From the IMG/VR virus record IMGVR_UViG_3300026488_000010: a stretch of 64,000 nucleotides of DNA. One strand, 5' to 3'. This document shows positions 11,322-42,933 of this stretch, piece after piece. A program made the position numbers and the translations under genes. The stretch is from a virus. How positions within the stretch are numbered: the first letter of the stretch is position 1; each line of letters begins with the position of its first letter. The notes beneath the pieces are model-generated. The model had not been told where the DNA came from, did no database searches, and saw only the letters and a program-made list of their open reading frames with translations.

Positions 11322-11367
11322 AAAACGATCTTTATCGATAAAGATCGTTTTAGTTAATATAGAAATA
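11322..11367. promoter_or_regulatory. 30-bp perfect palindrome plus conserved 15-mer GTTAATATAGAAATA
   Basis: AAAACGATCTTTATCGATAAAGATCGTTTT at 11322-11351; 15-mer at 11353-11367. Confidence 0.6.
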
Positions 11368-11411
11368 CAGAAAATCATCTGTATTTCCCAAAAATTAAAA
11401 TAGGAGTTAAG

Positions 11412-14120
11412 ATGATCATTCATGAGACATCAGGAGAAGTAAAAATTTCAGGCGCATTAGAGCAAACAGAGTTCAAGGTTAAGACAGATGATGGTAAAAT
11501 GTTCCACATTCTATCAAATCTATATTCGAATCCACTAGGTGCTGTTGTAAGAGAGTTAAGTACAAATTGTAATGACGGTCACAAAATTGCAGGGTGTGAA
11601 GAAAGATCTTTTGATATCATTCTACCAGGTAGAATGGATATGGGAAATTTTATTAAATTTAGAGATTATGGACCGGGTATGCCACATGATGTTGTAATGT
11701 CTATATTTACAACATTTGGTGAAAGTACTAAATCTGATTCAAATATTGAAACTGGTTGTTTAGGTTTAGGTTCTAAATCGCCATTGGCAATTACAGATTC
11801 ATTTACAGTTACAAGTATTAATGACGGTCGTAAAACTGTTTATACTGTTTCTAAAGATGCACATAAAAGACCTATGCTTACAATGTTTGGTGCAAATGAT
11901 ACAGATGAAGAGAATGGTCTATTAATTACTGTACCATTAACTGATCATTATTCATCTAATGTTGCAAATGAGATTTCTGAGCAACTAAAATTTTTTAAAA
12001 CTAAACCTCGCGTATTACGTGGTGATAAAGTATTGGATTGGGAATGGGAAAATAATGAGAGATTCATTAAGGTTACTGATCAAATATTTATTCGTACAAT
12101 TGGTAATGATAAAGAATCTAATATTATTCAAGGTGAGGTTGGCTATTCGTTTTCAGCATCAGTTCTTAAAAGATCATTAAAAGTTAACTCAGCTATTCCA
12201 TATTTAAAAAATAAAGGTTTAGATGTTTCAGATGAAACAATGTCAATGTTATCAAAATTCTTTGATAATTTTGAATTTAGAATTTATATGCCAATGGGTT
12301 CTGTTTCATTTGCACCTTCGCGTGAAGAGTTAATTTATGATGATGTTACGTCTCAAAATATTCTTAGTCATTTTTTAAATGCTATATCATATATTGATAA
12401 AACATATATTGAGATATATAAAAAAATTGAATGTGATTATCAAATGAAAAAAGTTCGTCAAAATTCACAATCATTGTTTGCAGATGCTAATTATACTGAG
12501 GATCAAAAAAAGTTTTTAAACTTAGTTGGTTTTTCATTTGCATCTGAAACTAGTTCAAATCTAGTTATGTCTAATGGGAAATCACCGAGAACCAATTTGC
12601 CACGATTAGATCGTCTAACATATATTGAAGATATTTTAGAAATGAAAACAATTACTCCTGATCACAGGAGTGTAAAAATATATTCAATGATTAGAAAAGT
12701 GAAGCAGTGGAGAGATAAAACAAAATATGATTTAGAATGTGAAAATATTCATAACTATATTGACGTTAGTGATTACAAGAATATTAAAATTATTTTTATA
12801 AATAAAGACACAAAATTTTATAAAAAGCATCTGACAAATTATATGTTATCACATATGGATGATCGTCGTACAAATGGTGATAATTGGTCAGATATTCCAA
12901 GTGTCTTTTATGTAAAATTAGAACAGGTTACTCAAGCACATATTGATGAAATGGTTGATAAATGTGGATTAACATCTGATAACATATTACCATTTTTAGA
13001 TGTTATTAAAGTGTCGCAAGCATTTATTGATAGTGGTAAAGCGCCAGCAAAATTAGTTCTATCTAAACCAAAAACGTTGCGCCATGCATATTCAAATAGA
13101 ATGACAAGTTCTATTGGTGACTGGACAATGTTTGAGACAAATACTGTTGCAATTAAAGATGAGTTAGAAGGTTGTTATATTGAAACATTTAATAATAAAA
13201 TAACTTTTGATCAAATTAATAGAGTTCCCGGATTAAAAGAAAAATTAGCAAATGTGTTAAAGTATGATGTTTCAAATATTAATCAGATAAAAAATACAAT
13301 CATGCTATTAAATCATATGGGTGCAAACATTCCAACTTTTGAAGTTTATGCTGGACATGAAAAGAATTTTAAAAAGACAAAATTAAAATCATTTTTTGAA
13401 ATGTTAGGCGAAAAGATTGATGATTTAAGAGAACGTAATGGTGTAAGTGCACTATTTTACACTACAAAAACTTTTAATGTTAGCATCGGTAAAACTAGAG
13501 ATACAGAATCATTTTTTGAGAAAATAGATATGATGCATGGTTCTATAAAAATGATTTTAAATAATCATCAAATTAGTGCAAATAAATTAATAAAAACATA
13601 CCATGAAACTGCAGCATTAGCATTGGAAAAATTAAAGAAACCAGATGAGTGCTTATATTTAGATGATCATGAATTATTGCGATTATATAAAATGGAATTA
13701 AATGCAACAACAGGTGATAGTAGAGTTCGCGAATTATTATCAAATTGTGGACTACTAGATTCATTTAATGCCCGTAAAAAGTTTGAAGAAGCATTAGATG
13801 TAAAATTTAATATGGAAGATATTAATATTACAGTTGAAAATTTTGTGAGCAAATACTCTCTTAAAAAAATGTATCAATCACTTGATTATACATATATGTA
13901 TTATTCAAGTTTAAATGCTTCTGAAATGATAAAATTATTTTCAGATATATACACAATAATTAATAAAAAGGATTATATAGATGAGACATTTCCAAATATT
14001 AGTACTTTGATGGTTAAAGAACCTGATCATGTATTAGATAACGATGAAGATGAAACTGATGCAGCAATCAATAGACATGATCTTGATGCAGAGAAAGCAG
14101 AGAAAGCAGTTGCTGAATAA
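11412..14120 (+). CDS. rIIA: RIIA-like protein (N-terminal GHKL ATPase)
   Basis: LYSNPLGAVVRELSTNCND, RDYGPGM, FGESTK, GCLGLGSKSP; paired with rIIB. Confidence 0.85.
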   Translation: MIIHETSGEVKISGALEQTEFKVKTDDGKMFHILSNLYSNPLGAVVRELSTNCNDGHKIAGCEERSFDIILPGRMDMGNFIKFRDYGPGMPHDVVMSIFTTFGESTKSDSNIETGCLGLGSKSPLAITDSFTVTSINDGRKTVYTVSKDAHKRPMLTMFGANDTDEENGLLITVPLTDHYSSNVANEISEQLKFFKTKPRVLRGDKVLDWEWENNERFIKVTDQIFIRTIGNDKESNIIQGEVGYSFSASVLKRSLKVNSAIPYLKNKGLDVSDETMSMLSKFFDNFEFRIYMPMGSVSFAPSREELIYDDVTSQNILSHFLNAISYIDKTYIEIYKKIECDYQMKKVRQNSQSLFADANYTEDQKKFLNLVGFSFASETSSNLVMSNGKSPRTNLPRLDRLTYIEDILEMKTITPDHRSVKIYSMIRKVKQWRDKTKYDLECENIHNYIDVSDYKNIKIIFINKDTKFYKKHLTNYMLSHMDDRRTNGDNWSDIPSVFYVKLEQVTQAHIDEMVDKCGLTSDNILPFLDVIKVSQAFIDSGKAPAKLVLSKPKTLRHAYSNRMTSSIGDWTMFETNTVAIKDELEGCYIETFNNKITFDQINRVPGLKEKLANVLKYDVSNINQIKNTIMLLNHMGANIPTFEVYAGHEKNFKKTKLKSFFEMLGEKIDDLRERNGVSALFYTTKTFNVSIGKTRDTESFFEKIDMMHGSIKMILNNHQISANKLIKTYHETAALALEKLKKPDECLYLDDHELLRLYKMELNATTGDSRVRELLSNCGLLDSFNARKKFEEALDVKFNMEDINITVENFVSKYSLKKMYQSLDYTYMYYSSLNASEMIKLFSDIYTIINKKDYIDETFPNISTLMVKEPDHVLDNDEDETDAAINRHDLDAEKAEKAVAE

Positions 14121-14129
14121 AGGAAAAAT

Positions 14130-16130: not shown

Positions 16131-16775
16131 ATGTTGAATTCTAAAAAAGTTTTATTTGTATTGGCACATTATGATGATGAATCATTTAGCGCTGGTACAA
16201 TTAAAAAAATGGTGGATGCTGGTATAGAAGTATCAGTATTAATTATATGTGGTAATGGTGCAGTATTAAATGATCCTAGGCGCAATATATTTTCGAAAAA
16301 TATTGAACATGTTTTACAATGTCAAGCAGGTGCAATTGGATATTTCGATTTAACTCTTAATAATTTAAGTAATGATGTTCGAATGAAAATGGAAGAAAGT
16401 GTTAGGGATTATATATATTCATATGCTCCTGATACCATCATTACGAATAATAGTACTGATTTACATAATGATCATAAATTTGTATCTGAGATGGTTCGTA
16501 TCATCTCAAGACCTAGTCAAGAACATAACATAAAAAACCTATATGAATGTTATATTCCAGGAGCAACTGAATATGGTGCAGGTACAAATGAATTCACATG
16601 TATTGTGAATGTTTCAAATGAATTACCATATAGAGACACATGTATAGGTAATTATGATTTACCTCATAGAGGTCTTACTAATCAAGCAGGCGCAAGAATA
16701 ACTGCTCAATATTTTGGAGCATTAAATTCTTGTCATGCTGCAGAGATTTTTAAACCTATATATACAAAACAATAA
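16131..16775 (+). CDS. PIG-L/LmbE family deacetylase
   Basis: VLAHYDDE and DLHNDH metal-binding motifs. Confidence 0.85.
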   Translation: MLNSKKVLFVLAHYDDESFSAGTIKKMVDAGIEVSVLIICGNGAVLNDPRRNIFSKNIEHVLQCQAGAIGYFDLTLNNLSNDVRMKMEESVRDYIYSYAPDTIITNNSTDLHNDHKFVSEMVRIISRPSQEHNIKNLYECYIPGATEYGAGTNEFTCIVNVSNELPYRDTCIGNYDLPHRGLTNQAGARITAQYFGALNSCHAAEIFKPIYTKQ

Positions 16776-16784
16776 AGGATAATA

Positions 16785-19239: not shown

Positions 19240-20067
19240 ATGTTTATTAAATTTTTAGGAAGTGGTTCAGCATTTGTATTAGGTAAAGAAAATTACCAAT
19301 CAAATATATTAATTTCAAAAGAAGTTAAAAATATTGAAAGAGAAATTGTTACAAAACATTTATTATATGATGCAGGCACAACTATTCCTGAGGCTCTAAA
19401 TTATTTTGATATGACGCCACAAGACTTAGATATAGTTTACATTAGCCACTTACATGCTGACCATGCCGGAGGCATTGAATACTTAGCATTCAAGACATAT
19501 TTTGAACAATTTCCATTTGGTCAAAAAAAGATTAATCTTGTTTGTCATAAGTCAATATTATTTAATGGTTGGGATAATACTTGGAAAGGTGGATTACAAA
19601 GTATCCAAGGAATGACAAATTCATTAGAATCTTATTTTTGGACACATTATTTAGAATCGAACGATGAGTTTGATTTTCATGGTACACTTATGAAACCTAT
19701 TCAAACAGTTCATGTTGTTGATGATCGAATGATTAATCCAATTTATGGTCTAATGTTTGATCACGAAAAAGAAACAGTATTTATAACGGGTGATAGTCAA
19801 TTTGCACCAAATCAAATGCTTACATATTTTCACATGGCAGATATTATATTTCACGATTGTGAATTTGCAGAGTACCCAAATTCGGTTCATGCGCAGTTTC
19901 ATCAATTAAAAACATTATCTGAAGATACAAAAAAGAAAATGTGGTTATATCATTATTCATTAGGTGATAAACATATTTGGGAATTGGAACAAGAAGTTTT
20001 AGCTGCAGGGTTTGCAGGTATAGTTAGAAAGGGTCAAGAATTTAAAATAGGAAAAGAAAATGTTTAA
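19240..20067 (+). CDS. apyc1: MBL-fold hydrolase, Apyc1-like (anti-Pycsar cyclic pyrimidine phosphodiesterase)
   Basis: GSGSAF, SHLHADHAGGIE, KKINL, W.N..KGGL, GDSQF, IFHDC, VHA, WLYHY in Apyc1 order. Confidence 0.7.
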   Translation: MFIKFLGSGSAFVLGKENYQSNILISKEVKNIEREIVTKHLLYDAGTTIPEALNYFDMTPQDLDIVYISHLHADHAGGIEYLAFKTYFEQFPFGQKKINLVCHKSILFNGWDNTWKGGLQSIQGMTNSLESYFWTHYLESNDEFDFHGTLMKPIQTVHVVDDRMINPIYGLMFDHEKETVFITGDSQFAPNQMLTYFHMADIIFHDCEFAEYPNSVHAQFHQLKTLSEDTKKKMWLYHYSLGDKHIWELEQEVLAAGFAGIVRKGQEFKIGKENV

Positions 20068-24749: not shown

Positions 24750-24970
24750 TGATTAAAGTTTGTAGTGATACAATTGAAACAGATGATAAAAAATTCGATT
24801 TTGAGCATAAGATTCAAATAATGATTCGAGAAAATAATATTATGGAAGATGATATTATTAATATTGAAACAAGTGTTATGCATACACCTAAAAGATGGTA
24901 TGATTATTTTATAAGCATACAGATAATATATAAATTAAATAAGGAAATTAAAAATGAACGCAAATTTTAA
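24749..24970 (+). CDS. Hypothetical protein
   Basis: Coupled ORF (TAATG). Confidence 0.5.
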   Translation: MIKVCSDTIETDDKKFDFEHKIQIMIRENNIMEDDIINIETSVMHTPKRWYDYFISIQIIYKLNKEIKNERKF

Positions 24971-25790
24971 AATAGAAGTCACAAATGGTAAGGTTGGACA
25001 TGGAATGTCGATTAGTGATATCGGCTACAAAGTATCTAAGTTTAATGCTGGGGAAATTAATATCAAATTAGAAGATCATCATTATACAAATTCATTTATA
25101 ACTATTTCTATAACTGGGAATATAACGTCTTCTGACGATATCATGGAGCTATTATTATTAAATGACGCAATAGAAAGAAAATATGTATATGAGAGAAAAC
25201 TTCTTAATATGTTTTATGTTCCATATTCTAGACAAGATAGATTGTGCAATACTGGAGAATCTTTAAGTATTAAAGTATTTGCCAATTTAATTAATTCTTG
25301 TAATTTTGATACAGTGTATACTAAAAATAATCACTCAGATGTATCAACTGCTTTAATTAATAATTGTATAGATTTAGAAGTTCATGACATTATTCCTAAG
25401 AATTTAGCAATTGATTATGATTATGTTATTTCTCCCGATGCTGGAGCAAATAAAAAAACATTTAAGCTTTCACAAAAATATAATATTCCTATGATTCAAG
25501 CAGATAAAACTCGTGATACTAAGACAGGCGACATCACAGGAACAGTTGTACATTCTGATTGGCAAACTATGGGTGGAACTAAGGTATTAATTATTGATGA
25601 TATATGTGATGGAGGTAGAACTTTTTTAGAGCTATCTAAAGCTTTAAAATTATTGGACGTTCGTTCTATTGATTTATATGTAACTCATGGAATATTTGAA
25701 AATGGTTTAGATGCAATGAAAGATGCTGGTATTGAAAATTTTTACTGCTCTAACAATCTATTTGAATGTGAAGGAGTAAAATTAATATGA
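24954..25790 (+). CDS. prs: Ribose-phosphate pyrophosphokinase family protein; candidate NARP1 Adps (ADPR-PP synthetase)
   Basis: PYSRQDR, SPDAGA, KTRD, IDDICDGGRTF, THGIF. Confidence 0.85.
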   Translation: MNANFKIEVTNGKVGHGMSISDIGYKVSKFNAGEINIKLEDHHYTNSFITISITGNITSSDDIMELLLLNDAIERKYVYERKLLNMFYVPYSRQDRLCNTGESLSIKVFANLINSCNFDTVYTKNNHSDVSTALINNCIDLEVHDIIPKNLAIDYDYVISPDAGANKKTFKLSQKYNIPMIQADKTRDTKTGDITGTVVHSDWQTMGGTKVLIIDDICDGGRTFLELSKALKLLDVRSIDLYVTHGIFENGLDAMKDAGIENFYCSNNLFECEGVKLI

Positions 25791-26134
25791 AAAAATTTGT
25801 AAATTCAGTTGCAAAATTTGATTGGGCAATTACAGAAGTTGAAAAACTCAGAGATTTTTTGATTGAAACAGATGGGGACTTTGAAAATATGGAAGAGATC
25901 GCGACAGAGATTCGAGGTAAGCGCGCAGTGTTTATACAAGAAAATTTCTTCTGTGCAGAAGATGAATGTACACATTATGTTGTCACAGATAACGAAAATA
26001 ATAAAGAAACATTTGATGGGGTAATGATTGCACAAAATAAACTTATTGATGAGTTATCAGTTGGATATATGTTATATTTTAAGACACCGAATGGATTAAA
26101 AAGATTCTCAACATTTAATTGGACAGTAAGATGA
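25787..26134 (+). CDS. Hypothetical protein
   Basis: ATGA-coupled ORF between the prs-like and NAMPT-like genes. Confidence 0.55.
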   Translation: MKKFVNSVAKFDWAITEVEKLRDFLIETDGDFENMEEIATEIRGKRAVFIQENFFCAEDECTHYVVTDNENNKETFDGVMIAQNKLIDELSVGYMLYFKTPNGLKRFSTFNWTVR

Positions 26135-26165
26135 TGTTAAATAATACTATAAAATATTTAACATC
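26133..26165. promoter_or_regulatory. 11-bp inverted repeat around a TACTATAAA loop, upstream of the NAMPT-like gene
   Basis: GATGTTAAATA / TATTTAACATC. Confidence 0.4.
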
Positions 26166-26216
26166 TGTATGTATTACATTAAATTATATTAAATTAGCAA
26201 CAACAAAGGAAAATTA

Positions 26217-28827: not shown

Positions 28828-29085
28828 ATGAAACCTGAAAATCGAAAAATGTATCTAGACAAGTCGAAAACTGATTGGAAATTACATGAAAATGGAAAAA
28901 AGGTTTTAAATTGGTGGGAAGATATAATCACTAATGGTACTGGTACAATAAAAGATGAAATACAAAAAGAGATTGATGATGGTATTGATGAATATTTAGA
29001 GTTTGATCGCGAAAATTTAGATCAAACAAAAGAAGATAAAAAAGATTATAATAATTTAATACAAGAAGGTATAAATGGACTATAA
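28828..29085 (+). CDS. Hypothetical protein
   Basis: AGGA RBS. Confidence 0.55.
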   Translation: MKPENRKMYLDKSKTDWKLHENGKKVLNWWEDIITNGTGTIKDEIQKEIDDGIDEYLEFDRENLDQTKEDKKDYNNLIQEGINGL

Positions 29086-29584
29086 AAAAACAATTAATTG
29101 GGACATCGCGTCCCGATTAGGATTGATTTATAAAATCAATAAAGAGGTGCTACATCCTTTAGGAATGGCTATGACGAAAGATACATTTGGAAGATCTGAT
29201 GGTATTTTAGTTAATGATGAACCTTATACGTTCAGTCAAGAATTAATTGATCGGAATGAAGAAAAGTTAAAATCATTAGATAAAAATCTAAAAGATTTAT
29301 TCAAAGATTTTGGTACACCTTTAGATTTTAAATATAAATATAGAGTAACAGATGATGCTAAAATTAATATAGAATTAAATGAAATCATAAAATCTGTCGG
29401 TTATCATGTGTGGGATGAAGATGGTTCTATATCTTTCTCATCAGGTATAGTATACGATGAAATGTATCCATTCTTATTATATTCTGAGGACGATAATGAA
29501 TTCGTAATGTCGAATTCTGATAAAGGTGTTGAATTAACATTATCAGAATTTAAAAAACAATTAAAATTAATAAAAAGCAAATAA
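29075..29584 (+). CDS. Hypothetical protein
   Basis: Overlapping ORF with an RBS. Confidence 0.55.
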   Translation: MDYKKTINWDIASRLGLIYKINKEVLHPLGMAMTKDTFGRSDGILVNDEPYTFSQELIDRNEEKLKSLDKNLKDLFKDFGTPLDFKYKYRVTDDAKINIELNEIIKSVGYHVWDEDGSISFSSGIVYDEMYPFLLYSEDDNEFVMSNSDKGVELTLSEFKKQLKLIKSK

Positions 29585-29595
29585 AAAGGTTTAAC

Positions 29596-30012
29596 ATGAA
29601 AAAAGTAAGAAAAAATATATTTGAGACAAATAGTAGTAGTTCACATTCTTTAAGTTTAGGAACATTAGTTGGTATGCCAGATCAAAATATTGATGAGTGT
29701 CAAATTACATTAGGTGATGGTGAATATGGTTGGGCATGGGAAGATTTTGATGCATGGTTAGACAAAGCTGATTATATAACAGTTGATGCTAAAGGTGATC
29801 AATCTAAATTAGATAAGATTGAAAGAGCAATTAAAGAAGTATATCCAAATGCTGTTATTAATTGGTCAACTGAAGGTTATATTGATCATGATTCTGCAGA
29901 TACCTTTTGGGGAAATTCTGAAACTGATTATGAAGACGTTAAAACTTTTATCTGGGGGAATGGTGGATTCTCAACAGGTAATGATAATGAAGATGGCACG
30001 CAACAATATTAA
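29596..30012 (+). CDS. Hypothetical acidic protein with an N-terminal FETNSSSSHS motif
   Basis: AAAGG RBS; motif read directly. Confidence 0.6.
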   Translation: MKKVRKNIFETNSSSSHSLSLGTLVGMPDQNIDECQITLGDGEYGWAWEDFDAWLDKADYITVDAKGDQSKLDKIERAIKEVYPNAVINWSTEGYIDHDSADTFWGNSETDYEDVKTFIWGNGGFSTGNDNEDGTQQY

Positions 30013-30014
30013 AT

Positions 30015-30178
30015 GATAAAACGATCTTTAAAGATCGTTTTATCTTGGATTAAAAACCTTATTTCTATATTAACTTTTCTATCTTTAATGATCGTTTTAT
30101 ATATAGTTGATAAGTTAACGTTTTACAACACAGTAGTAAAAATAAATATAAAAACGATCTTTAAAGATCGTTTTTATA
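30015..30178. repeat. Intergenic cluster: two copies of the 24-bp palindrome flanking a reverse-oriented palindrome plus 15-mer module
   Basis: AAAACGATCTTTAAAGATCGTTTT at 30018-30041 and 30151-30174; TATTTCTATATTAAC at 30060-30074. Confidence 0.85.
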
Positions 30179-30198
30179 AATTCAAATAGGAGAAAATA

Positions 30199-31869: not shown

Positions 31870-32221
31870 TGATGTGTCAGAATTAAATAATATGCAAAAA
31901 TTGGCTCCTCAAGAGGTAATAATTGAAAAAACAATTGAGGAGAAGATTGAGAAGATTGAGAAGATTGAAGATGTACCATCGGTTGATAAATCATTAACAT
32001 ATAATGGATATAAAGATTGGATAATTATTGCAGATACTTTGGAAAATACCACATTATCACCAACTGAACATTTTCCTGAAATGGTTGATAAACAATTAGA
32101 AATTGACAGAACAAAATTTGATGTTACTATTTTGAATCATTCAATAACTGATTCAAATAATAAGTTCTGGATAACATTAACTTTAGGTATAACACCAATT
32201 AAAAAACAAAGAAGGTTTTAA
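31862..32221 (+). CDS. Hypothetical protein (probable start 31862 within track ORF 31691-32221)
   Basis: In-frame ATG overlaps the end of the upstream gene. Confidence 0.5.
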   Translation: MYDDVSELNNMQKLAPQEVIIEKTIEEKIEKIEKIEDVPSVDKSLTYNGYKDWIIIADTLENTTLSPTEHFPEMVDKQLEIDRTKFDVTILNHSITDSNNKFWITLTLGITPIKKQRRF

Positions 32222-32222
32222 A

Positions 32223-32495
32223 ATGAATGATTATATAGATTGTGATGAACGTAATCGCACAATGCAGTTACGAGATGGATCAAATATAAATCAAGGAGAA
32301 ACTGATTTATATTTTTGGCAATATAATAAATTAGGAGGATTCTTAACAAAAATATTTGATGCGATGGCAGTGGCCGACACGACAAATTTAAATAAGATCG
32401 CAAAAGGGTTCCCACAACAAGTACAAGCATATAAAGATTATGGTAATCTTAGCGGCTTTTGGGAACAAGTTAAAATAAATATGGAATCAGATTAG
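32223..32495 (+). CDS. Hypothetical protein
   Basis: Packed co-oriented ORF. Confidence 0.55.
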   Translation: MNDYIDCDERNRTMQLRDGSNINQGETDLYFWQYNKLGGFLTKIFDAMAVADTTNLNKIAKGFPQQVQAYKDYGNLSGFWEQVKINMESD

Positions 32496-32503
32496 GAGTC
32501 TAC

Positions 32504-32719
32504 ATGGGAGACACAAAAACAACAAGACGAAAGACATTTGAATATTATATGTTTTCAACATCAAATTCTGGTGAGATGAATAAAGAGATCGAAAGACGTT
32601 TAAAAAAAGGTTGGGAAATTAGTGAAAAACAATTCAAGATGAGTAATGGTGGCAATAATAGAGCATACGCAATATTATTTGAAAAAGAAAAAAAGAAAAA
32701 GGATAATTATGTATTTTGA
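32504..32719 (+). CDS. Small protein, DUF1737-like pattern
   Basis: MNKEIERRLKKGWEI...YAILF; AGGAG RBS. Confidence 0.5.
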   Translation: MGDTKTTRRKTFEYYMFSTSNSGEMNKEIERRLKKGWEISEKQFKMSNGGNNRAYAILFEKEKKKKDNYVF

Positions 32720-33152
32720 TAATATTATGAAAGATAATAAAGTATACTCATTAATATATGGATTTGGTATTGTTAAAAATGTTGTTGATACAAAAAGCAG
32801 ATTAGACGGCTTTTATATATTTTCAGTACAATATGATAATCATAAAATTGTTCATTACACTGCAGATGGTATACCAAATTGGTGTGGGGATGATTGTGGA
32901 ACTCAAACAGTATTTTATAAAAATGATATAGATTTTGACAGAGTTGATTTTAAAACATCCGAGGATGTTTTAAGTATTAAAAAAGTAAAAAAACTTAGAG
33001 GTACTGGTAAATTGGAGATGAAGTGTCCATCAGGTCTTTGGCGAAATGCTGATGAATGTCCTATAAAAATTATCACAGATGCAATATCTAAATCAAAAAC
33101 TTATCTATTCAGAATGGTTGAGTATATTGGAAAAGAGCGCAGAGATAGATAA
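32709..33152 (+). CDS. Hypothetical protein (probable start 32709)
   Basis: AAGGAT RBS before the in-frame ATG. Confidence 0.55.
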   Translation: MYFDNIMKDNKVYSLIYGFGIVKNVVDTKSRLDGFYIFSVQYDNHKIVHYTADGIPNWCGDDCGTQTVFYKNDIDFDRVDFKTSEDVLSIKKVKKLRGTGKLEMKCPSGLWRNADECPIKIITDAISKSKTYLFRMVEYIGKERRDR

Positions 33153-33379
33153 TGAAAGAAGTAATTATTTTAGATTCTTGGACGGCTAAAGGCCTATCAG
33201 AAGAGATTAATGTATATTTAAAAAATGGTTGGAATATATGTGATGCTGTACCAGGAGTTGTACCTGGTAGTGTTCATGGTGCAACATCTGGACATTTTTA
33301 TATAATGCTTGAGCGCGAGATTGAAAATAAAGAAACTAAAGAAACTAAAAAAACTAAAAATGATAAAAAAGGATTTTAA
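33152..33379 (+). CDS. Small protein, DUF1737-like pattern
   Basis: LSEEINVYLKNGWNI...FYIMLER. Confidence 0.5.
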   Translation: MKEVIILDSWTAKGLSEEINVYLKNGWNICDAVPGVVPGSVHGATSGHFYIMLEREIENKETKETKKTKNDKKGF

Positions 33380-33448
33380 TGAAATTTACATTTAATAAAA
33401 AAGATTTTAATGAAATTTACATTTAATAAAAAAGGATTTTAATGAAAT
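33364..33448 (+). repeat. ~32-nt direct repeat, 2.7 copies, at the end of the endonuclease gene
   Basis: TAAAAAAG(G)ATTTTAATGAAATTTACATTTAA twice plus a partial third copy. Confidence 0.85.
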
Positions 33449-34254
33449 CTAGCATACCATCCAATGCAAAATCCTCTGTCAGATTTTATAGCTCGTGTCT
33501 GCCAAGATTTATTTTCATATAATATTGTATTGTTTATATATGTTTTACACATTGCACCGTATGGTAAATTTAATTCGTAACATTTTGATTTAAAATTACC
33601 ATTACATTCACATACAACATTATCATTATTATCAAAAATTATTATTTTTTTCGAGTTTGGATTTTTATTTCCTGAAGTGTTTCTATTTTTACATCCTTCT
33701 TTTATAGATGCTCTAATCTTAGCATTAATGATTGGATCAGATTTTGTTCTTCGTTGCTTTTCTGAAGCAGTTTTATAAATATTAGAAGCATCATGGTGGG
33801 TTTTAGACCAATGTTCATTCTTATTATAATATTCTTTTAATGTTTTTGATATTTTTTGAGAGTTGTTTTTATAAAACAACTCTTTTTCATCGATTGACAT
33901 CTTACTGGTAAAATGTTCATCACCTGAATGTATTAGATAAAATGTTACACATTGATTTGCCTTATTTAAAAATTTTGGATGATATCGAACATCAAAATAA
34001 TGATGATATTTAGATTCAAATTTTATAGCATCTTTGCGATTATTAAAAATATATAATATTTTATATTTAAATCTCGGATGATCTTTTTTTTGATCAATTA
34101 TAAATTGTTTATTAGTCGAAGAAGAATAATATACATTACCTAGATCATCAATGGGTAATATATTACAACTTCTTGAACCAACATAATGCATTGAATTGTG
34201 TTTATCAGTTATTCGATAAACATAATGATATTGTTTCGTTGTATTATTTGACAT
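33439..34254 (-). mobile_element. Free-standing Seg-like GIY-YIG homing endonuclease in reverse orientation
   Basis: YHYVYRIT...HYVGSRS...YYSSS; C-terminal GNKNPNSKKIII; the only substantial minus-strand gene in the + block. Confidence 0.8.
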
Positions 34255-34303
34255 TTTGGTCTCCTTATGTTTTATAATTATTTGTTAATATAGTGGAGTT
34301 GTT

Positions 34304-35806
34304 ATGAAAGAAAATATTAAAGTTAAATATAAAGGTATAGATATAGAGATTATACTTATACATGTCGCTGGGTCAAGGTTATATGGCACATCAAATAGTG
34401 AATCAGATTGGGATTATCGAGGAGTATTCATATCTGATATAAAATCAAAAGTTGGCTTATTAGAACAATTAGAAATAATCGAATCTCGTAATGATAAAGA
34501 ATTTTTTATTAAATTAAATAATGATTATAATTTAGGTATGAAAGATTGCGATGATATCGTTTTATGGGAAATTAAAAAATTTACAGAAATGTTGTCAAAT
34601 GGGAATCCAAACACATTAGATTCAATAACTTTTGATAGCCTTTCAGATGCAAATATTTATTGTAATGATCAAGGACATTACTTGCTTAGTCATAAACAAT
34701 TGTTTATGACAAAAAAATTAAAACATACATTCTCAGGTTATGCTATGTCACAGCTACATAAGATCAAAAATCATAATAGATGGATTGAAAAATATCCAAT
34801 GTCAACATTAGTTTTACAAATGTTAGTTACTCATAGAAACAATCGAAGAATTGATCGTACATGGGTTTCTGATAATTTTGGTGGAAGAGTAGCATCTGAA
34901 TTATTTGATGATCATATTTTTCCAGCATTAGCCGTTGATGAAAAATTGCCTACTAATATGAGTGTTGACACATTCTTTAAATGTCATGATGTAGAATATC
35001 CTCAATTCGCTTTTCCTAAAGTAGATATTACTGAACTTAAAAGATATATGATTCCTAGAATGATTGATTATGTAAAAGCATTCGATCAAAAAGCCAAGAG
35101 ATTAGATTTGGATGCACCTTTTGAAATGAGTATAGGAAATGATATCGAAGTATTAACGATTAGAGATTTATTATTAGAATCTGGTTCTTTCAGAGCACTT
35201 GGTGGATCAATATTAAATATTTTTACTGATGGTTCAGGCATCTTTGATAGACAAGGTTCTGTTAAGAAACATCCTCCTGAAGAAGTTGGAGATTTTGTGT
35301 GTTCTATCATTATCGATAAAGATCGTTATAAAGCTGACTTCGACGAAGTCTCTAAAATGTGGAAATGGAAGATTGAACGAAACATTGCAAGATCTGTACT
35401 CGAAGATAAACATGGTTATGATACAAAACATGCAAGTCATTTATATCGATTAATGATTGGAGCTGAACATACTCTTAGAGATTGTTTATTTGACCCTGTA
35501 TTAACAGATGATGATTTACAAATGGTAAAAGATGTTCGATATGGAAAATATGAATATGATGAAATTATAGCATATGCTAAGAAATCAGAAGAGTTATTAG
35601 ATGTATTATATGAATCATCAACATTACCACAAAAGGTAGATATTCATAAAATAAATAAACTATTACTTGAACTTCAAGGTGTGTCGTCGAGTGTGTCGAG
35701 TGTGTCGAGTGTGTCGAGTGTGTCGAGTGTGTTGAGTGTGTCGAGTGTGTCGAGTGTGTCGAGTGTGTCGAGTGTGTCGAGTGTGTCGAGTGTGTCGAGT
35801 GTATAA
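34304..35806 (+). CDS. Pol-beta-superfamily nucleotidyltransferase (RlaP / T4 NrdC.11-like) with an (SSV)n tail
   Basis: GSRLYGTS...SDWDYRGVF, NGNPN, YDTKHASHLYRL. Confidence 0.8.
   Translation: MKENIKVKYKGIDIEIILIHVAGSRLYGTSNSESDWDYRGVFISDIKSKVGLLEQLEIIESRNDKEFFIKLNNDYNLGMKDCDDIVLWEIKKFTEMLSNGNPNTLDSITFDSLSDANIYCNDQGHYLLSHKQLFMTKKLKHTFSGYAMSQLHKIKNHNRWIEKYPMSTLVLQMLVTHRNNRRIDRTWVSDNFGGRVASELFDDHIFPALAVDEKLPTNMSVDTFFKCHDVEYPQFAFPKVDITELKRYMIPRMIDYVKAFDQKAKRLDLDAPFEMSIGNDIEVLTIRDLLLESGSFRALGGSILNIFTDGSGIFDRQGSVKKHPPEEVGDFVCSIIIDKDRYKADFDEVSKMWKWKIERNIARSVLEDKHGYDTKHASHLYRLMIGAEHTLRDCLFDPVLTDDDLQMVKDVRYGKYEYDEIIAYAKKSEELLDVLYESSTLPQKVDIHKINKLLLELQGVSSSVSSVSSVSSVSSVLSVSSVSSVSSVSSVSSVSSVSSV
35687..35803 (+). 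repeat. 9-nt tandem repeat TCGAGTGTG, 13 copies (one TTGAGTGTG variant), encoding (SSV)n
   Basis: Read directly from the sequence. Confidence 0.95.
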
Positions 35807-35822
35807 AGCATAAGGAACAAAA

Positions 35823-36059
35823 ATGTTTAAAATGTTTGATATAAAAGATCGATTATATGAGAAAGGTGTTTATAGAATCACATATGAATTATCAGATTCT
35901 AGTACAAAATTGGAAACTTTAATTGAAAATAATGAAAATTTCACATTAGATAATTTAACAGCATTTTTAAAAAAAGTTATCCCAAATTTGGATACAACTG
36001 CTGATAGAATTAATTTAAAGAAAACAGAATTTGAAAGTGTAGCTAAAAGGAGCTTTTAA
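35823..36059 (+). CDS. Hypothetical protein
   Basis: AAGGA RBS. Confidence 0.55.
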   Translation: MFKMFDIKDRLYEKGVYRITYELSDSSTKLETLIENNENFTLDNLTAFLKKVIPNLDTTADRINLKKTEFESVAKRSF

Positions 36060-38056: not shown

Positions 38057-38447
38057 ACCATTCAGAACTTTTACAGCAATTGTTGAGAATAGAAACACTT
38101 CAGATTTAAATAGATTCGGATATATTCGAATACTTTTAAGAGAAGTTCGCTTAAATGGTAGATTACTATTTAGAGAACATATGTGGATAAAAGATTCAAA
38201 ACATACTAAACATTTAAAAAAGAACACTGTTATTAGATTTAGAGGCAAGATTGAAAAATATATAGATATTGATAACGCAAATGGATACAAAGTCACAGTT
38301 GCATGTATTAGGAATATAGATACTTTATATATTCAAAACACATTAAAAATGCGAAAAGAAATGTATTTACCTAGAAGAATATATAACAGAAGATTAAAAA
38401 AATTTAAGGCTTATAATGATAGGAACACAAATAAAAAAAGCAAATAA
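38022..38447 (+). CDS. Basic hypothetical protein
   Basis: GGAGG RBS. Confidence 0.55.
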   Translation: MNKKLNPKFADEPFRTFTAIVENRNTSDLNRFGYIRILLREVRLNGRLLFREHMWIKDSKHTKHLKKNTVIRFRGKIEKYIDIDNANGYKVTVACIRNIDTLYIQNTLKMRKEMYLPRRIYNRRLKKFKAYNDRNTNKKSK

Positions 38448-38739
38448 AATCCCGTTTATACAAGCAGTTAGAATTGCACTCGGATTAACAAGCGCTATGA
38501 TATATAACGACATTCGTTGGAAATATAAAAAAGGAGAACCTAGAGTTAGAATTGGTAGAGCTCTTAAAGTTCAGCTACATGATTGGATACCAACACTACA
38601 AGAAATTAGAAATTTGGAAGAAATTCTTGTGAATTATAATTGTAAACTTGTATCACATGGTGTCCCAACTTCTAAAAGTTATAGAGGAATATTAAGAAGT
38701 TACAGATTTAAATTAGAGTTTATTGATAAAAATTTGTAA
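38416..38739 (+). CDS. Basic hypothetical protein
   Basis: Overlapping co-oriented ORF. Confidence 0.5.
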   Translation: MIGTQIKKANKIPFIQAVRIALGLTSAMIYNDIRWKYKKGEPRVRIGRALKVQLHDWIPTLQEIRNLEEILVNYNCKLVSHGVPTSKSYRGILRSYRFKLEFIDKNL

Positions 38740-38746
38740 TAAAATA

Positions 38747-38784
38747 TTCTATCTTTAAAGATAGAAATTATTAACATAGAAATA
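38747..38784 (+). promoter_or_regulatory. Palindrome plus 15-mer module variant upstream of thyX
   Basis: TTCTATCTTTAAAGATAGAA followed by ATTAACATAGAAATA. Confidence 0.55.
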
Positions 38785-38816
38785 ATAACTATAAAAGAAT
38801 TCAAAAAAGGAATTAA

Positions 38817-39737: not shown

Positions 39738-39993
39738 CGGAATGTTTAATGCATCATTAAGTGATTCAAAAATTACAACAGAAGCTCGAAATGATAAAAT
39801 GATAGTTAATGCTTTATATAATCCCGAAATTATATCAGAAATGGCTTCTGATATATCAAAACAATTAAATGACTCAGAGAATCATTTAATATTAAAACAG
39901 TTAGATGATGATGCATTAGATATTTTAATTAATTTGTGTCAAAAAGAAAAAACAAATCGGGAATTAAATGATCCTGATAGAAATAGGTCTTAA
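39727..39993 (+). CDS. Hypothetical protein
   Basis: Overlapping ORF. Confidence 0.5.
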   Translation: MFLNGMFNASLSDSKITTEARNDKMIVNALYNPEIISEMASDISKQLNDSENHLILKQLDDDALDILINLCQKEKTNRELNDPDRNRS

Positions 39994-40309
39994 TATGGAT
40001 GCTAATAAAACAGAAATTGATATAAAAAATAATTCAGTAATTTTTGAGTTTAAACAAGATGATAAATTTGATGCTGATATTTTAATTAAGATGGAAAAGT
40101 CTTTTTTAGAATTAGATCCAACTAAAATATTAGAAGTTCAACTAAAAGGTCCAGCACCTATTGAAACAGTTGCATACTGCGCTGAAGTATCTTCACATTG
40201 TGATATGATTCTAACGGTGAGTTCAACAGAATCTTTTAAGTTCATCAAAGATTTACAACAAACAAACCCTACAACTATAAAATTAATTCAGGAGAATGAA
40301 AATGGCTAA
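39968..40309 (+). CDS. Hypothetical protein (start uncertain)
   Basis: Overlapping ORF. Confidence 0.5.
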   Translation: MILIEIGLNMDANKTEIDIKNNSVIFEFKQDDKFDADILIKMEKSFLELDPTKILEVQLKGPAPIETVAYCAEVSSHCDMILTVSSTESFKFIKDLQQTNPTTIKLIQENENG

Positions 40310-41096
40310 AAACGAAATTCAAGTATATGAAGGCGTAATGCTTTGGAATGATACAAATTTTTATGCTAATGGTAAAAAGAAAATGAGTACTGGGACCATT
40401 ACAATGTTTGACACAAATGGTAACCCGAATGAATATAGATATGTATCTTTCAGATCACAAGTATGTATTCAATCTGATGCTATGGGTAAAAATGGTATGA
40501 AAGGTATCAAATGTCAAGTTCATGGATATTTTGAAGAGAATACATACAAAGGTGAAACAACTATGCAAATTATGGTTGATAAACTATTCTTAGAAGGTTA
40601 TGAGCAGCTTGCAGCTGATGCAGAAGCAGCGGGAACACCTTTACCTCCAGTACCCTCTGGTACTCTTCCGAGTACTCCAATTCAACCAATTGTTTCAAAT
40701 GGTATGCCCGCTGCACCTGGAGTTGTTAATGCTCCTCAGCCGAATATTCCTACACCAACTGTTCCAACACACACCTTACCGGCAGCACCTGCAGCACAGT
40801 CTCAATCGGTTCCAGGAGTAGTTGCGGGTGGATACGTTATGCCTATGGGTGGTAATGTTACTGCTCAAGTATTGCAGCCAGTTGCTCAGGCTCAACTGGC
40901 AGTGGGTGTGCCTCAACCAGTGCCTACAGCTCCTGCCGCAGCTCCTGTAATTAATCAGGTGCCTGTGCCACAAGTACCAAAAACACCTAAACCTGCTGCA
41001 TCTTTGCAGCCCCCCGTAATACCAAATCTACAACAACCAATTGTTGTAGAACAGACAGGTCCTGCTTATATACCAGCAGGAGATTTACCAGAATAG
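40296..41096 (+). CDS. OB-fold/SSB-like N-terminus with a long Pro/Ala/Val/Gln-rich tail
   Basis: Beta-rich N-terminus with QVHGYFEENTYKG...IMVDKL; low-complexity C-terminal half. Confidence 0.5.
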   Translation: MKMAKNEIQVYEGVMLWNDTNFYANGKKKMSTGTITMFDTNGNPNEYRYVSFRSQVCIQSDAMGKNGMKGIKCQVHGYFEENTYKGETTMQIMVDKLFLEGYEQLAADAEAAGTPLPPVPSGTLPSTPIQPIVSNGMPAAPGVVNAPQPNIPTPTVPTHTLPAAPAAQSQSVPGVVAGGYVMPMGGNVTAQVLQPVAQAQLAVGVPQPVPTAPAAAPVINQVPVPQVPKTPKPAASLQPPVIPNLQQPIVVEQTGPAYIPAGDLPE

Positions 41097-41120
41097 GTAG
41101 CTTAGGCTACCTATTTTTTT
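41092..41120 (+). terminator. Intrinsic terminator
   Basis: AATAGGTAGC-TTAG-GCTACCTATT followed by a T-run. Confidence 0.85.
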
Positions 41121-41233
41121 ATTGCTTATATTTATGATTTTGCGTGTACTCGACGATTAGTATGTATAATACAATAACGCTTGTTATACGCGAAGTATAT
41201 GTGGTATAGAGGTATTAATTTTAAAGGAAAAGA

Positions 41234-41926
41234 ATGAAAAATAAAAAGATCATAATGATTAATGGTAAGAAACGAGCAGGTAAAGATTTCTTCGCAGACT
41301 CAATCATTAATAAAAACTTTACAAAAATTGCTGTCGCATTTAAATTAAAAGAAATCGCGTATGAAATAGCGGGAAAAGAATACGATGTAATGGAAGAATA
41401 TAAAAATAACAATGTTCCATTTGAGATTGATATTGAAGACTTTGATATCAAATTCAGAAAAGCTTTGATTAAACATTATAGATATGCAAAATATGATGAT
41501 AACAATATTATTGAATTTATTGAAAGCTTTAATGTTCGATCACTACCTATATTTGTAGATGGTTATGAAAAAGTTGATGCAAGATTGTTTTTACAACATA
41601 TGAATATATTTAAAAATATATTCTTCAATGATAATATTTGGATTGATTACACAGTTGATTTAATTAAATCAACTAAGGGAAATATTGTTATATCAGATTT
41701 TAGATTTCCATATGAATATGAAGCACTGTCTGATAATTTTACAAAGGTAATAACTGCTAAAGTTATTGGTAAAAATTACTATGATGTTGATGAATATGAT
41801 AATCATTCATCAGAAACTAGTTTAAATGATTTTGAATTTGATTATCATATAAACAATACAATATGGAATGAAGAACTATTGGAACTTCAAGCATCTTTAT
41901 TGATACAAGAATTAAAAGGTAAATAA
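41234..41926 (+). CDS. Deoxynucleoside monophosphate kinase (T4 gp1-like)
   Basis: GKKRAGKD, FKLKE, RLFLQ, ISDFRFPYE. Confidence 0.8.
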   Translation: MKNKKIIMINGKKRAGKDFFADSIINKNFTKIAVAFKLKEIAYEIAGKEYDVMEEYKNNNVPFEIDIEDFDIKFRKALIKHYRYAKYDDNNIIEFIESFNVRSLPIFVDGYEKVDARLFLQHMNIFKNIFFNDNIWIDYTVDLIKSTKGNIVISDFRFPYEYEALSDNFTKVITAKVIGKNYYDVDEYDNHSSETSLNDFEFDYHINNTIWNEELLELQASLLIQELKGK

Positions 41927-42807
41927 TGGATACAGCAGATACAGCAGATATAAAATTTAAGATGCCAACACAAAATGAGATGACGAACCAACAGTTTGAT
42001 GCAATAAAAAATAAGACTGGTTTTGATATTGAAGAATTCAATCGAATAGTTGCATATCAAAAAAGTTTAAATAACAAAATTAGCAACACATGGGAAGCCG
42101 AAGGGTTGGATTGGCAATTGGCAATCATTTTAGAATGTGCAGAGATGTTAGATAGCACTGATTGGAAGTGGTGGAAAAAAGGTAAAACGGATTGGGCAAA
42201 TTTAGAAATTGAAATGATTGATTTATTACATTTCATACTTGCAAAAGGTATTGAACTTAATCAGATCCCAATGATGAGCACTTTATTAATGTCTCATGAG
42301 ATTATGAGTATGCAAACAGATCAACCAAAAATAACGTTCGATGATGAACTTGCTAAAAAAATAAGAGTTGATACAATAAACAATTTCTTAAATATGGTAC
42401 TAATGAAAAATTATTTAGGAGCATTTACAGCATGGCTAAAAATATGGTATTCTTTAGGAAAATCAGCTAATGATATGTATAAATTATATCAAATCAAATA
42501 TTGTTTAAATATTTTTAGACAAGATCATGGATATAAAGAAGGAACATATTCGAAGATTTGGAATGGTGCGGAAGATAATGTCGCTGCTCAGCGAATTGGG
42601 TACGGATTAGAACTCGGTGATAAATTTCATGATACCCTTTATAAAGCATTAGAAGATGTTTATAATGAAATCGAAGTTAAAGATTTAACTGTTCAAGGTT
42701 TTATCAAATCAAATGAAAAGTGGAAAATGTTTATCGATCAGGTGCCCGAACAGAATAAAAAATTATTCATTGATTTTGCATCAGAGTATAAAGAGTACTT
42801 AAAATAG
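41926..42807 (+). CDS. dut: Dimeric all-alpha dUTPase (Campylobacter type)
   Basis: ECAEMLDS, WKWWK, EMIDLLHF, LNIFRQDHGYKEGTY.K.WNG.EDN. Confidence 0.9.
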   Translation: MDTADTADIKFKMPTQNEMTNQQFDAIKNKTGFDIEEFNRIVAYQKSLNNKISNTWEAEGLDWQLAIILECAEMLDSTDWKWWKKGKTDWANLEIEMIDLLHFILAKGIELNQIPMMSTLLMSHEIMSMQTDQPKITFDDELAKKIRVDTINNFLNMVLMKNYLGAFTAWLKIWYSLGKSANDMYKLYQIKYCLNIFRQDHGYKEGTYSKIWNGAEDNVAAQRIGYGLELGDKFHDTLYKALEDVYNEIEVKDLTVQGFIKSNEKWKMFIDQVPEQNKKLFIDFASEYKEYLK

Positions 42808-42820
42808 TTTGGGAAATATA

Positions 42821-42933
42821 ATAGTTAATATAGAAATATTAACTATTTTTCCCTACTTTTCTAGTTAACTTTTAATATTTTTTGATAATTATTGAAACTA
42901 TCTTTAAAGATAGAAAAAGTTAATATAGAAATA
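42821..42933 (+). promoter_or_regulatory. Two copies of the 15-mer (one within an 11-bp hairpin) and a CTATCTTTAAAGATAG palindrome upstream of the nrd cluster
   Basis: 15-mer at 42824-42838 and 42919-42933; palindrome at 42898-42913. Confidence 0.6.

Follow-up and report, generated by a model that had tools for sequence, protein, structure and literature searches.

The early promoters of phiKZ and AR9 are read by a polymerase packaged in the virion; a promoter of this class should have its start ~6 nt past the element, act early, and depend on neither the host polymerase nor protein synthesis. According to the available part of one account, jumbo phages that encode an RNA polymerase each possess their own AT-rich, highly conserved motif of ~10 nt near −10 before early operons, and where such motifs have been tested, the virion polymerase uses them as its early promoters (PMC7598289). 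For AR9, the excerpted description gives the early promoter as AAATATATATTAT-N6-G and the late promoter as AACA-N6-TA/G, with both promoters in front of genes that are expressed throughout infection (PMC5312081). In the T4-like phages, a stem-loop is combined with a promoter in so-called PeSLs, and the accessible text includes cases where the stem-loop overlaps the −10 box (PMC2839356). Here we describe a repeated element in IMG/VR virus record IMGVR_UViG_3300026488_000010, analysed as one stretch of 64,000 nt (the window). The element joins a conserved 16-nt word to a palindrome, and we put at roughly 0.55 the probability that it is a phage-specific early promoter of a clade of self-transcribing giant phages, with a phage polymerase as its probable reader, joined to a dyad that serves as terminator or operator.

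The conserved word is the 16-mer AGTTAATATAGAAATA, of which the plus strand has exact copies at 11352, 42823 and 42918 and the minus strand one at 30060-30075. With up to one mismatch it matches 4 times where 0.03 matches are expected, and none of 100 shuffled sequences reached 4; the word TTANNATAGAAAT occurs 7 times, compared with 0.47 in shuffles. All five copies of the 15-mer (A to E) fall within the ~3.9% of the window that is intergenic, a fraction that is approximate because genes were called simply as the longest open reading frames (ORFs). Loose 15-mer matches, with up to three mismatches, are at chance level (22 versus 16.3 expected; 11 of 100 shuffles reached 22). The core palindrome, ATCTTTAAAGAT, has 10 exact copies, every one of them intergenic, and 13 matches with up to one mismatch versus 1.19 expected, a number reached by none of 100 shuffles. 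The copies and the palindromes around them are as follows:

2455-2469, minus strand: variant TTTACCATAGAAATA (the 'ACC' form, commonest in the relative G001), with no minus-strand gene downstream
11322-11351, plus strand: copy A palindrome AAAACGATCTTTATCGATAAAGATCGTTTT, a perfect 30-nt inverted repeat, 6 nt past the rIIB stop codon
11352-11367, plus strand: copy A core AGTTAATATAGAAATA (15-mer 11353-11367), predicted start 11367
11362-11387, plus strand: hairpin GAAATACAGA/TCTGTATTTC, starting inside the copy A motif (at GAAATA)
30015-30044, no strand assigned: strong palindrome GATAAAACGATCTTTAAAGATCGTTTTATC, 3 nt past the stop codon of gene 29596-30012
30060-30098, minus strand: copy D, a degenerate dyad (30076-30098) and then the 16-mer (30075-30060; 15-mer 30060-30074), predicted start 30060
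30147-30178, no strand assigned: strong palindrome, with the ATG of the gene for the CCA-adding enzyme (30199) 20 nt further on
38747-38766, plus strand: copy B weak palindrome TTCTATCTTTAAAGATAGAA, dyad TATC-N6-GATA, 8 nt past the upstream stop codon, without a T-run
38770-38784, plus strand: copy B ATTAACATAGAAATA, two mismatches, predicted start 38784
42811-42853, plus strand: hairpin GGGAAA..AATAGTTAATAT AGAA ATATTAACTATT..TTTCCC, 3' of the dUTPase gene, enclosing copy E
42823-42838, plus strand: copy E 16-mer (15-mer 42824-42838), predicted start 42838, in tandem with copy C and 95 bp upstream of it
42898-42913, plus strand: copy C weak palindrome CTATCTTTAAAGATAG, dyad TATC-N6-GATA
42918-42933, plus strand: copy C 16-mer (15-mer 42919-42933), predicted start 42933
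61150-61416, no strand assigned: dyad cluster at a convergent gene junction

A sequence-only reading of this DNA had already picked out several of these sites, and its coordinates for palindromes, for 15-mers and for a partial word GTTAATATAG at 34284 all held on re-scanning. The four palindromes it listed are real, but eight further palindrome copies and the minus-strand variant TTTACCATAGAAATA had been overlooked.

The motif ends 44 nt before the ATG of rIIA (11412) in copy A, 32 nt before that of thyX (38817) in copy B and 33 nt before ATG 42967 in copy C, the start of an nrd cluster (a small gene, then nrdB and nrdA), and a Shine-Dalgarno sequence lies in each of these gaps. Profile matches to rIIA (phrog_612) and thyX (PF02511) and the identity of the nrd genes confirm what the sequence-only reading had said of the genes behind the plus-strand copies. 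Copy E is 128 nt upstream of the ATG, and a start codon lies within 80 nt ahead in three of the six intergenic motif copies of the window. In copies A and C the dyad ends 7 nt before the TTA of the motif. Modules A, B and C all have the layout stop codon, stem-loop, motif, Shine-Dalgarno sequence and ATG; in this they are repeated composites between a stop codon and a translation start, as PeSLs are. Copies B, C and D are 90-92% identical to one another over 40 nt, with copy D matching copy C at 92.5% over the same length.

Conservation of the element was assessed in G001, an IMG/VR contig of 181,622 bp (28.9% GC; 65% complete according to CheckV) that encodes an rIIA homologue with 42% identity to that of the window in a protein search. 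The two sequences are syntenic: 40 of the 75 window ORFs have a G001 homologue, at a median identity of 49%, and the order is kept in all but two. Neutral intergenic DNA is expected to be scrambled at such protein divergence. The word TTANNATAGAAAT occurs 29 times in G001, compared with 1.73 in shuffles, and 21 of the 29 occurrences are within the 6.3% of the contig that is intergenic. Eleven of these 21 copies lie 13-75 nt before the start of an ORF on the same strand, and in the closest cases the gap of 14-19 nt to the ATG contains a Shine-Dalgarno sequence. Individual positions are also kept. A G001 copy lies 31 nt before thyX, as the counterpart of copy B; the small gene preceding nrdB is preceded by two copies with a dyad between them, which is the layout of copies E and C; and the variant at 2455 on the minus strand has its counterpart at 1499 on the minus strand. 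The rIIB-rIIA spacer of G001 carries two copies of GATCTTTAAAGAT(C), and rIIA there is instead preceded by two dyads and then by the extended −10-like word TGATATAAC. Anti-defence genes, a helicase gene, homing endonuclease genes and small orphan genes are among those behind the motif in G001. The proposal of a phage-specific promoter in the sequence-only reading gains support from over-representation and intergenic placement in both genomes and from a sequence and position that are kept at ~49% protein identity and that point at start codons.

The range of the motif appears to be narrow. A complete, more distant relative of 281,455 bp (G002) has no copy of the motif and no rIIA, and no clear excess of dyads was found in it (36 matches per strand versus 21 for a reversed control pattern); the motif is therefore specific to a narrower clade. 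In IMG/VR, the 15-mer alone gives at least 118 single matches, mostly chance ones, of which one (L032) lies in G001, while the hairpin and composite patterns gave no match there and the hairpin gave none among genome contigs. The 54 matches of the composite pattern in metagenome contigs were set aside, none being related to the window (blastn aligned the motif only, and tblastx a single unrelated gene). A literature search with the exact words returned no paper containing these sequences.

The consensus drawn from both genomes is TTAnnATAGAAAT(A). For a logo, 45 copies of ATAGAAAT were taken that either are intergenic or have a start codon no more than 80 nt ahead, ATAGAAAT itself being fixed by the search. 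It shows TTA at −5 to −3 (82%, 78% and 96%), two variable bases (A/C, then C/T/G), ATAGAAAT, A/T and A. The two variable bases are positions 3 and 4 of a −10-like hexamer, TAnnAT, which reads TAATAT or TAACAT in the five window copies and is directly followed by an invariant AGAAAT; G is found at −14 in 36% of copies. A −35 element is lacking in all five window copies, where no match exceeds 3 of 6 with spacers of 16-19, so that the sigma-70-like −35/−10 boxes ~17 bp apart that characterize PeSLs are absent. The element is for this reason not filed as a PeSL. The statement in the sequence-only reading that the motif is unlike a sigma-70 −35/−10 promoter is right about the −35 box and wrong about the −10 region.

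In the proposed promoter, the core would consist of the −10-like TAnnAT and the invariant AGAAAT, with transcription starting at the next base, and it would drive early-type genes, namely rIIA, thyX and the nrd cluster. The start is predicted at the last A of the 15-mer in each of the five copies; it was placed at or just after the motif because only 14-19 nt, including a Shine-Dalgarno sequence, remain before the ATG in the closest cases. An RNA contig that begins at 42966 was not counted as evidence for a start, since contigs show no starts, ends or strand.

A −10-like hexamer raises the question of which polymerase reads it. A serious rival, which we nevertheless consider rather unlikely, is a cassette of the PeSL kind used by the host polymerase: a −35-less extended −10 promoter for a sigma-70-type holoenzyme, possibly with a phage activator at the dyad, and with the palindrome terminating transcription from upstream. 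A phage activator aids the host polymerase at T4 middle promoters, and the window phage has many T4-type genes by Pfam and PHROGs profiles. The host enzyme would explain why the variable bases fall at positions 3 and 4 of TAnnAT, why G is often found at −14 and why rIIA in G001 is preceded by the extended −10-like word TGATATAAC. Promoters without a −35 box are the rule in Campylobacter (available part of PMC3656092), and PeSLs and the related PmSLs share the order stop codon, stem-loop, promoter, Shine-Dalgarno sequence and ATG and likewise occur in degraded copies and near indels, as far as the excerpted papers go (PMC2839356, PMC4122927). Yet sigma-70 does not require the invariant AGAAAT that follows the hexamer, and the clade has its own polymerase gene and a late motif like that of AR9. 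Moreover, a sigma-70 consensus scan of the window found 93 sites versus 113 in shuffles, and among the best 60 of the 93 there was no plus-strand site at a module. A separate word, GTATAATAC, occurs twice in the window (2365-2373 and 41164-41172), both times between genes and with a perfect TATAAT inside; its second copy follows a canonical terminator (41090-41117) and precedes the dNMP kinase gene. This word may represent a third, host-like promoter type.

Evidence for a phage polymerase came from G001, which encodes a 1032-aa protein resembling the beta subunit of RNA polymerase in its phiKZ/AR9 jumbo-phage form. It matches PF00562 (E 1.6e-12), phrog_3148 ('RNA polymerase beta subunit'; E 1.7e-47) and, in the PDB, RpoB chains of bacteria (E 7e-27). 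Among cultured phages it comes closest, with 22-29% identity, to the beta subunits of phiR1-37, the Fusobacterium JD-Fnp phages, Staphylococcus phages S6 and DC4, PBS1 and Goe21, and phiKZ-like phages. There are 119 metagenomic homologues, several of them on contigs of 270-290 kb, and G002 has two beta-like genes. Given that the clade appears to encode its own multisubunit RNA polymerase, we infer that the motif would be an early promoter read by a phage polymerase. The sequence-only reading had advised looking for such an enzyme or a sigma factor elsewhere; the beta-like subunit in G001 answers to this in part, none being found in the window. Within 150904-157738 of G001 (L218), on the minus strand, the beta-like gene comes after two homing endonuclease genes and a 519-aa ORF, and upstream of this ORF are the word AACAAATT and a copy of the early motif with one mismatch. 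A hairpin promoter of the N4 type, in which a 5-7-bp stem with a 3-nt loop lies ~10 nt before the start and is read by a giant single-subunit virion polymerase, was considered and rejected; the hairpins here end ~20 nt before the predicted start, have loops of 4-6 nt, and the polymerase gene of the clade is of the multisubunit type.

A second motif strengthens the parallel with AR9. In G001, 19 of 43 copies of AACAAATA, often extended to AACAAATAATTA, are intergenic; the total is not above chance (43 versus 38), and only the placement is telling. Genes preceded by it at 12-66 nt are that for the tail sheath, one that weakly matches a major head protein (phrog_20655, E 1.4e-6) and others of the structural block, and its fuller form is (T)AACAAATA(ATTA), with many G001 sites (L211-L220). 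In the window, it occurs at 50757-50764 on the plus strand, 17 nt before 50782, the first gene of a structural block that ends with the PAAR protein, and at 34279-34286 on the minus strand, 24 nt before a homing endonuclease gene (33439-34254). The latter site accounts for the partial GTTAATATAG at 34284, which does not belong to the early motif and instead represents AACAAATA seen from the opposite strand, serving the minus-strand endonuclease gene. At the junction with this endonuclease gene, a 31-32-nt repeat is present three times (33350-33451). Judged by analogy, AACAAATA resembles the AR9 late promoter, and the early motif together with AACAAATA fits a two-class system as in AR9. The T4 late promoter sequence is TATAAATA; it is not enriched here, with 1 of 23 copies intergenic in the window, and was rejected as an identity for the motif. 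The earlier judgement that the motif is not a T4 late promoter therefore stands, though TAGAAATA differs from TATAAATA by a single base.

The palindromes associated with the motif come in two forms. The strong form, AAAACGATCTTTAAAGATCGTTTT (longer in copy A, with ATCGAT at the centre), consists of an A4 tract, a 12-14-bp stem and a T4-5 run, lies 3-6 nt past stop codons, and has folding energies of −13 to −16 kcal/mol (z −4.8 to −6.4); this is the anatomy of an intrinsic terminator, usable in both directions. For copy A, the 57-nt stretch 11316-11372 folds at −13.4 kcal/mol (z −4.81; none of 200 shuffles folds as well). The strong palindromes near copy D behave alike, with −15.9 kcal/mol (z −6.43) for the 39-nt stretch 30012-30050 and −14.8 kcal/mol (z −6.20) for the 38-nt stretch 30145-30182, and both were picked up by a terminator scan. 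A stable hairpin with a U-tract right after a gene is thus found at 11322-11351, 30015-30044, 30147-30178 and the copies in 61185-61416, and not in B, C or D. The weak form (B and C; CTATCTTTAAAGATAG) is followed by A-rich sequence without a T-run. The 51-nt stretch 38740-38790 around the copy B palindrome folds at −8.0 kcal/mol (z −3.06), and the 51-nt stretch 42890-42940 around that of copy C at −4.7 kcal/mol (z −1.25), with 22 of 200 shuffles folding as well; the copy D palindrome, a hybrid of the strong and weak forms, does not fold (−1.0 kcal/mol). With A4 on one side and T4-5 on the other, the dyad would form the terminator hairpin of the preceding transcription unit, and module A would therefore be a terminator-promoter cassette. 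A different class of hairpins, each unique in sequence, stands right after gene ends and carries a conserved tail TTTTCTTG(T/C), often with ..ATTTCA next (window 124-153, 2379-2412, 50705-50725 and, on the minus strand, 61423-61451; the tail is also found at many gene ends of G001). These are probably ordinary terminators.

The dyad within the palindromes is a 14-bp [G/T]ATC-N6-GAT[C/A]. Its half-site spacing is fixed: over both genomes, a spacer of 6 gives 77 sites, 46 of them intergenic, versus 18-34 sites for each of the other spacers from 2 to 11, with 0-2 intergenic each. A spacer of 12 gives 22 sites, 6 of them intergenic, some being overlapped double dyads as in module A (GATC-N6-GATA and TATC-N6-GATC). 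The inner six bases vary and at times are not self-complementary (CACAAA, TAATTG). Of 42 motif copies, 19 have a dyad whose end is 6-10 nt from TTA on the upstream side; the distance is exactly 7 nt in 11 of the 19, and the dyad then spans roughly −34 to −21. The spacer before the CCA-adding enzyme gene has three dyads in both phages, and one dyad in G001 lies between two divergent motif copies and would be in neither transcript. Because sequence, half-site spacing and distance to the motif are conserved independently of terminator anatomy, the dyad is better explained as the site of a dimeric protein than as a hairpin alone, and an operator is expected to show just such symmetry, with half-sites at a constant spacing and at a constant distance from the promoter. 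We therefore regard it as probably the binding site of a dimeric phage regulator, a candidate role that can coexist with termination in the strong copies. In the proposed mechanism the dyad would lie 7 bp upstream of the promoter in about half of the copies, occupying the place of the −35 element, and would be bound by the regulator even where no U-tail is present. The terminator or operator that the sequence-only reading had attached to its promoter is supported on both counts, by strong palindromes that fold like terminators and by spacings that fit an operator.

The protein itself is not apparent from Pfam scans, which found no DNA-binding or helix-turn-helix family at the cut-offs used (E ≤ 1e-4 in the window, E ≤ 1e-5 in G001); a 78-aa protein at 35823-36056 has a weak WH_Rok match (E 0.023). 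We offer only tentatively the fuller scheme in which the dyad would be the operator of a dimeric phage protein that gates early promoters, arrays of dyads would act as a sink, centromere or origin, and motif copies without a gene would give ~50-nt RNAs ending at dyad hairpins. Operator-controlled early promoters are not described in the available parts of two jumbo-phage accounts (PMC7598289, PMC5312081).

The arrays deserve separate consideration. At the convergent junction of the window, the cluster 61150-61416 comprises a 45-nt inverted repeat (61150-61194), which folds at −34.9 kcal/mol together with a neighbouring hairpin, a palindrome at 61185-61208 and, at 61261-61416, five more in tandem that repeat every 33 bp. 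G001 has an array at 49599-49792, between orthologues of the genes that flank the window array, with six tandem dyads at a 23-bp period and one more; its units are flanked by TTTTC...GAAAA, and the array is consequently without a U-tail in either direction. Such arrays at a convergent junction in both phages (five at 33 bp plus one; six at 23 bp plus one, with no U-tail) could mean that neither motif nor dyad is a promoter part, and that both are sites where proteins bind or recombination occurs, for instance in cassette shuffling, homing, positioning of the DNA, replication or packaging, and are intergenic merely through insertion tolerance. We consider this improbable. The motif is oriented to start codons at promoter distance in both phages, its logo is −10-like, and structural genes carry a separate motif class, as in AR9. 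Nonetheless, some copies are inverted pairs or orphans, and the ORFs beside the D cluster (29075-30012) and beside B (38416-38736) have no G001 homologue. Phage-depth contigs of the probable source run join hairpin to module and module to itself, pointing to more copies or rearrangements elsewhere, and G001 encodes an actin-like protein. The last belongs to the ALP/ParM type and is of interest given the dyad arrays; 104556-117302 and 171213-172115 of G001 include it and at least 10 radical SAM genes in a row. The cassettes look like units by which these phages may shuffle genes.

Several observations weigh against a phage-read early promoter. A number of copies face each other ~10 bp apart or point away from genes, which is odd for simple promoters, and 23 of 42 motif copies have no dyad. 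The hairpin of copy C is no more stable than shuffled sequence, and copy D does not fold. TAnnAT with its G at −14 also fits a host sigma-70-type enzyme, and one motif copy in G001 precedes the large terminase gene. Searches with Pfam and other profiles found no polymerase or sigma gene in the window, Pfam models found no beta-prime gene in G001 or G002, and none of the 119 beta homologues is on the 286,633-bp contig of the window phage.

The copies that point away from genes are copy D and 2455(−) in the window and 101048(+), 135733(+) and 176249(+) in G001. Copy D and the three G001 orphans have a dyad hairpin 24-30 nt downstream (for D, at an offset of 24, the hairpin 30044-30015), shortly followed by a T7-8 run in G001 and a T4 run in D; 2455(−) instead meets a unique hairpin ~70 nt downstream. 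Each of the three G001 orphans faces a gene-directed copy ~10 bp away. From their arrangement, the orphan copies look like tiny transcription units that would give a ~50-nt RNA.

Hairpins are also found around the motif itself. The one at 11362-11387 folds at −11.3 kcal/mol (z −7.07; 0 of 200 shuffles) and would form the start of the rIIA leader, or lie close to it, if the promoter reading holds. The region 42808-42940 folds at −33.4 kcal/mol (z −5.56), with an inner stem at copy E of −9.1 kcal/mol (z −4.17); the hairpin around copy E would stop transcription coming from upstream, and its left arm would be missing from RNAs that begin at E. Since the copy A hairpin starts at GAAATA and the motif lies 14-45 nt before start codons, one may ask whether the element acts in RNA, as a processing site or translational operator in the leader, with the hairpins as RNA stabilizers. 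This is very improbable: some copies have no downstream gene, copy E is far from its ATG, the dyad is upstream at a fixed DNA distance, and the G001 dyad between divergent copies would be outside both transcripts.

If the promoter interpretation is right, the two motifs and the conserved dyad would provide a testable transcription map for an uncultivated giant-phage clade, with an early motif and a late motif like that of AR9. Should the dyad bind a protein, it would offer a handle on how self-transcribing giant phages switch off early genes.

The window has 29% GC, and GATC is not strongly avoided in it (observed/expected 0.78). Nearly all of its genes up to 61115 are on the plus strand, with two minus-strand genes from 61454. 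Genes were identified with Pfam and PHROGs profiles, and those relevant here are:

9021-11315, plus strand: rIIB
11412-14120, plus strand: rIIA (phrog_612)
38817 (ATG), plus strand: thyX (PF02511)
41234, plus strand: dNMP kinase
41926, plus strand: dimeric dUTPase
43390, plus strand: nrdB
44695-48450, plus strand: nrdA with an intein
elsewhere in the window: RNA ligase, polynucleotide kinase and CCA-adding enzyme (ATG 30199)
elsewhere in the window: NAMPT with Prs, PARP-like protein, Acb2, Apyc1 and PAAR protein

The rIIA protein of the window is recorded for a contig of 286,633 bp, and the window phage is for this reason taken to be a giant phage; words from the rIIA peptide had no match in IMG/VR. 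Only one sequencing run contains the whole stretch and may be its source, a run labelled hydrothermal vent metagenome, and three others contain small shares (0.06-0.08). A near-identity search with 8 kb of the window against 50,697 phage records gave no match, nor did tblastn with a PolB fragment and a 1680-aa protein against deposited phage records. Rfam and tRNA searches of the window were likewise empty, as were PDB searches with the 1680-aa and 450-aa proteins of the window and the 519-aa and 1157-aa proteins of G001. A dUTPase query against genome contigs was uninformative as to the host, giving only Nitrososphaerota metagenome-assembled genomes at 34-47% identity through a single peptide word. 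The best PDB match of the dUTPase is 1w2y, which we take to be a Campylobacter enzyme, a weak host hint only.

Some further features of the two phages may be recorded. A counter-defence and NAD set lies at 806-1039, 5458-6729, 19240-20067 and 24954-28136 and consists of an Acb2/Tad1-like protein, a PARP-like protein with a WGR domain, Apyc1, and Prs with NAMPT, to which G001 adds Tad6 and Acb1. The nrdA intein contains a LAGLIDADG domain and is in the same place in G001 (32187-35930). A 423-aa protein (window 3474-4745; G001 2604-3854), with 70% identity between the phages, aligns to family B DNA polymerase profiles in their middle part only; it may be a polymerase that is split or incomplete. 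Tandem repeats that keep the reading frame, with units of 9, 9 and 12 bp, lie at 35668-35829, 48722-48846 and 1-120: (GTCGAGTGT)n is at the end of an RlaP-like gene, (AATGATGCA)n is in a phosphoribosyltransferase gene and (TGCTCCTGTTGC)n is at the window start. In the probable source run, the first of the three is a point where contigs break off.

Compared with known systems, the motif is closest to the early promoters of jumbo phages of the phiKZ and AR9 kind, as far as the available descriptions go. It is a phage-specific, AT-rich word of ~10-13 nt near −10, conserved, over-represented and found by that over-representation upstream of early operons, and the syntenic relative encodes a beta-like subunit nearest to those phages. 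As in the excerpted account of AR9, a second motif before structural genes contains AACA, and some G001 genes carry both. The differences are the motif sequence, the dyad at a fixed 7 bp in about half of the copies, the face-to-face pairs, the presence of both rIIA and rIIB, a polymerase gene known here from relatives, and a start and timing that are predicted. The T4 late promoter is similar in that TAGAAATA matches TATAAATA at 7 of 8 positions and no −35 box is present; unlike it, the motif precedes early-type genes, and structural genes carry AACAAATA.

For the palindrome, the strong form has the anatomy, fold and terminator-scan match of intrinsic, bidirectional terminators, from which forms B and C and the G001 array differ in having no U-tail. 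The conservation here extends beyond pairing to the sequence itself, and one G001 dyad sits between divergent motif copies. With lambda Cro/cI-type operators, which bind dimeric repressors and overlap promoters, the dyad shares its two-fold symmetry, the TATC...GATA at its ends, a constant distance between half-sites and a place over the −35 region; the arrays of 6-7 sites and a cognate protein not found by Pfam in either genome set it apart. As a composite, the element works, by analogy, like a PeSL or PmSL of the T4-like phages. In the available parts of Arbiol 2010 (PMC2839356) and Comeau 2014 (PMC4122927), these too are repeated composites with degraded copies and slipped multi-copies, they adjoin gene-content differences between relatives, and the PeSL of phage nt-1 has A-tract and T-tract flanks to its stem-loop. 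What distinguishes the element described here is the missing −35 box (at most 3 of 6), a stem sequence and 6-nt spacing kept across ~49% protein identity, and a clade that has its own polymerase gene.

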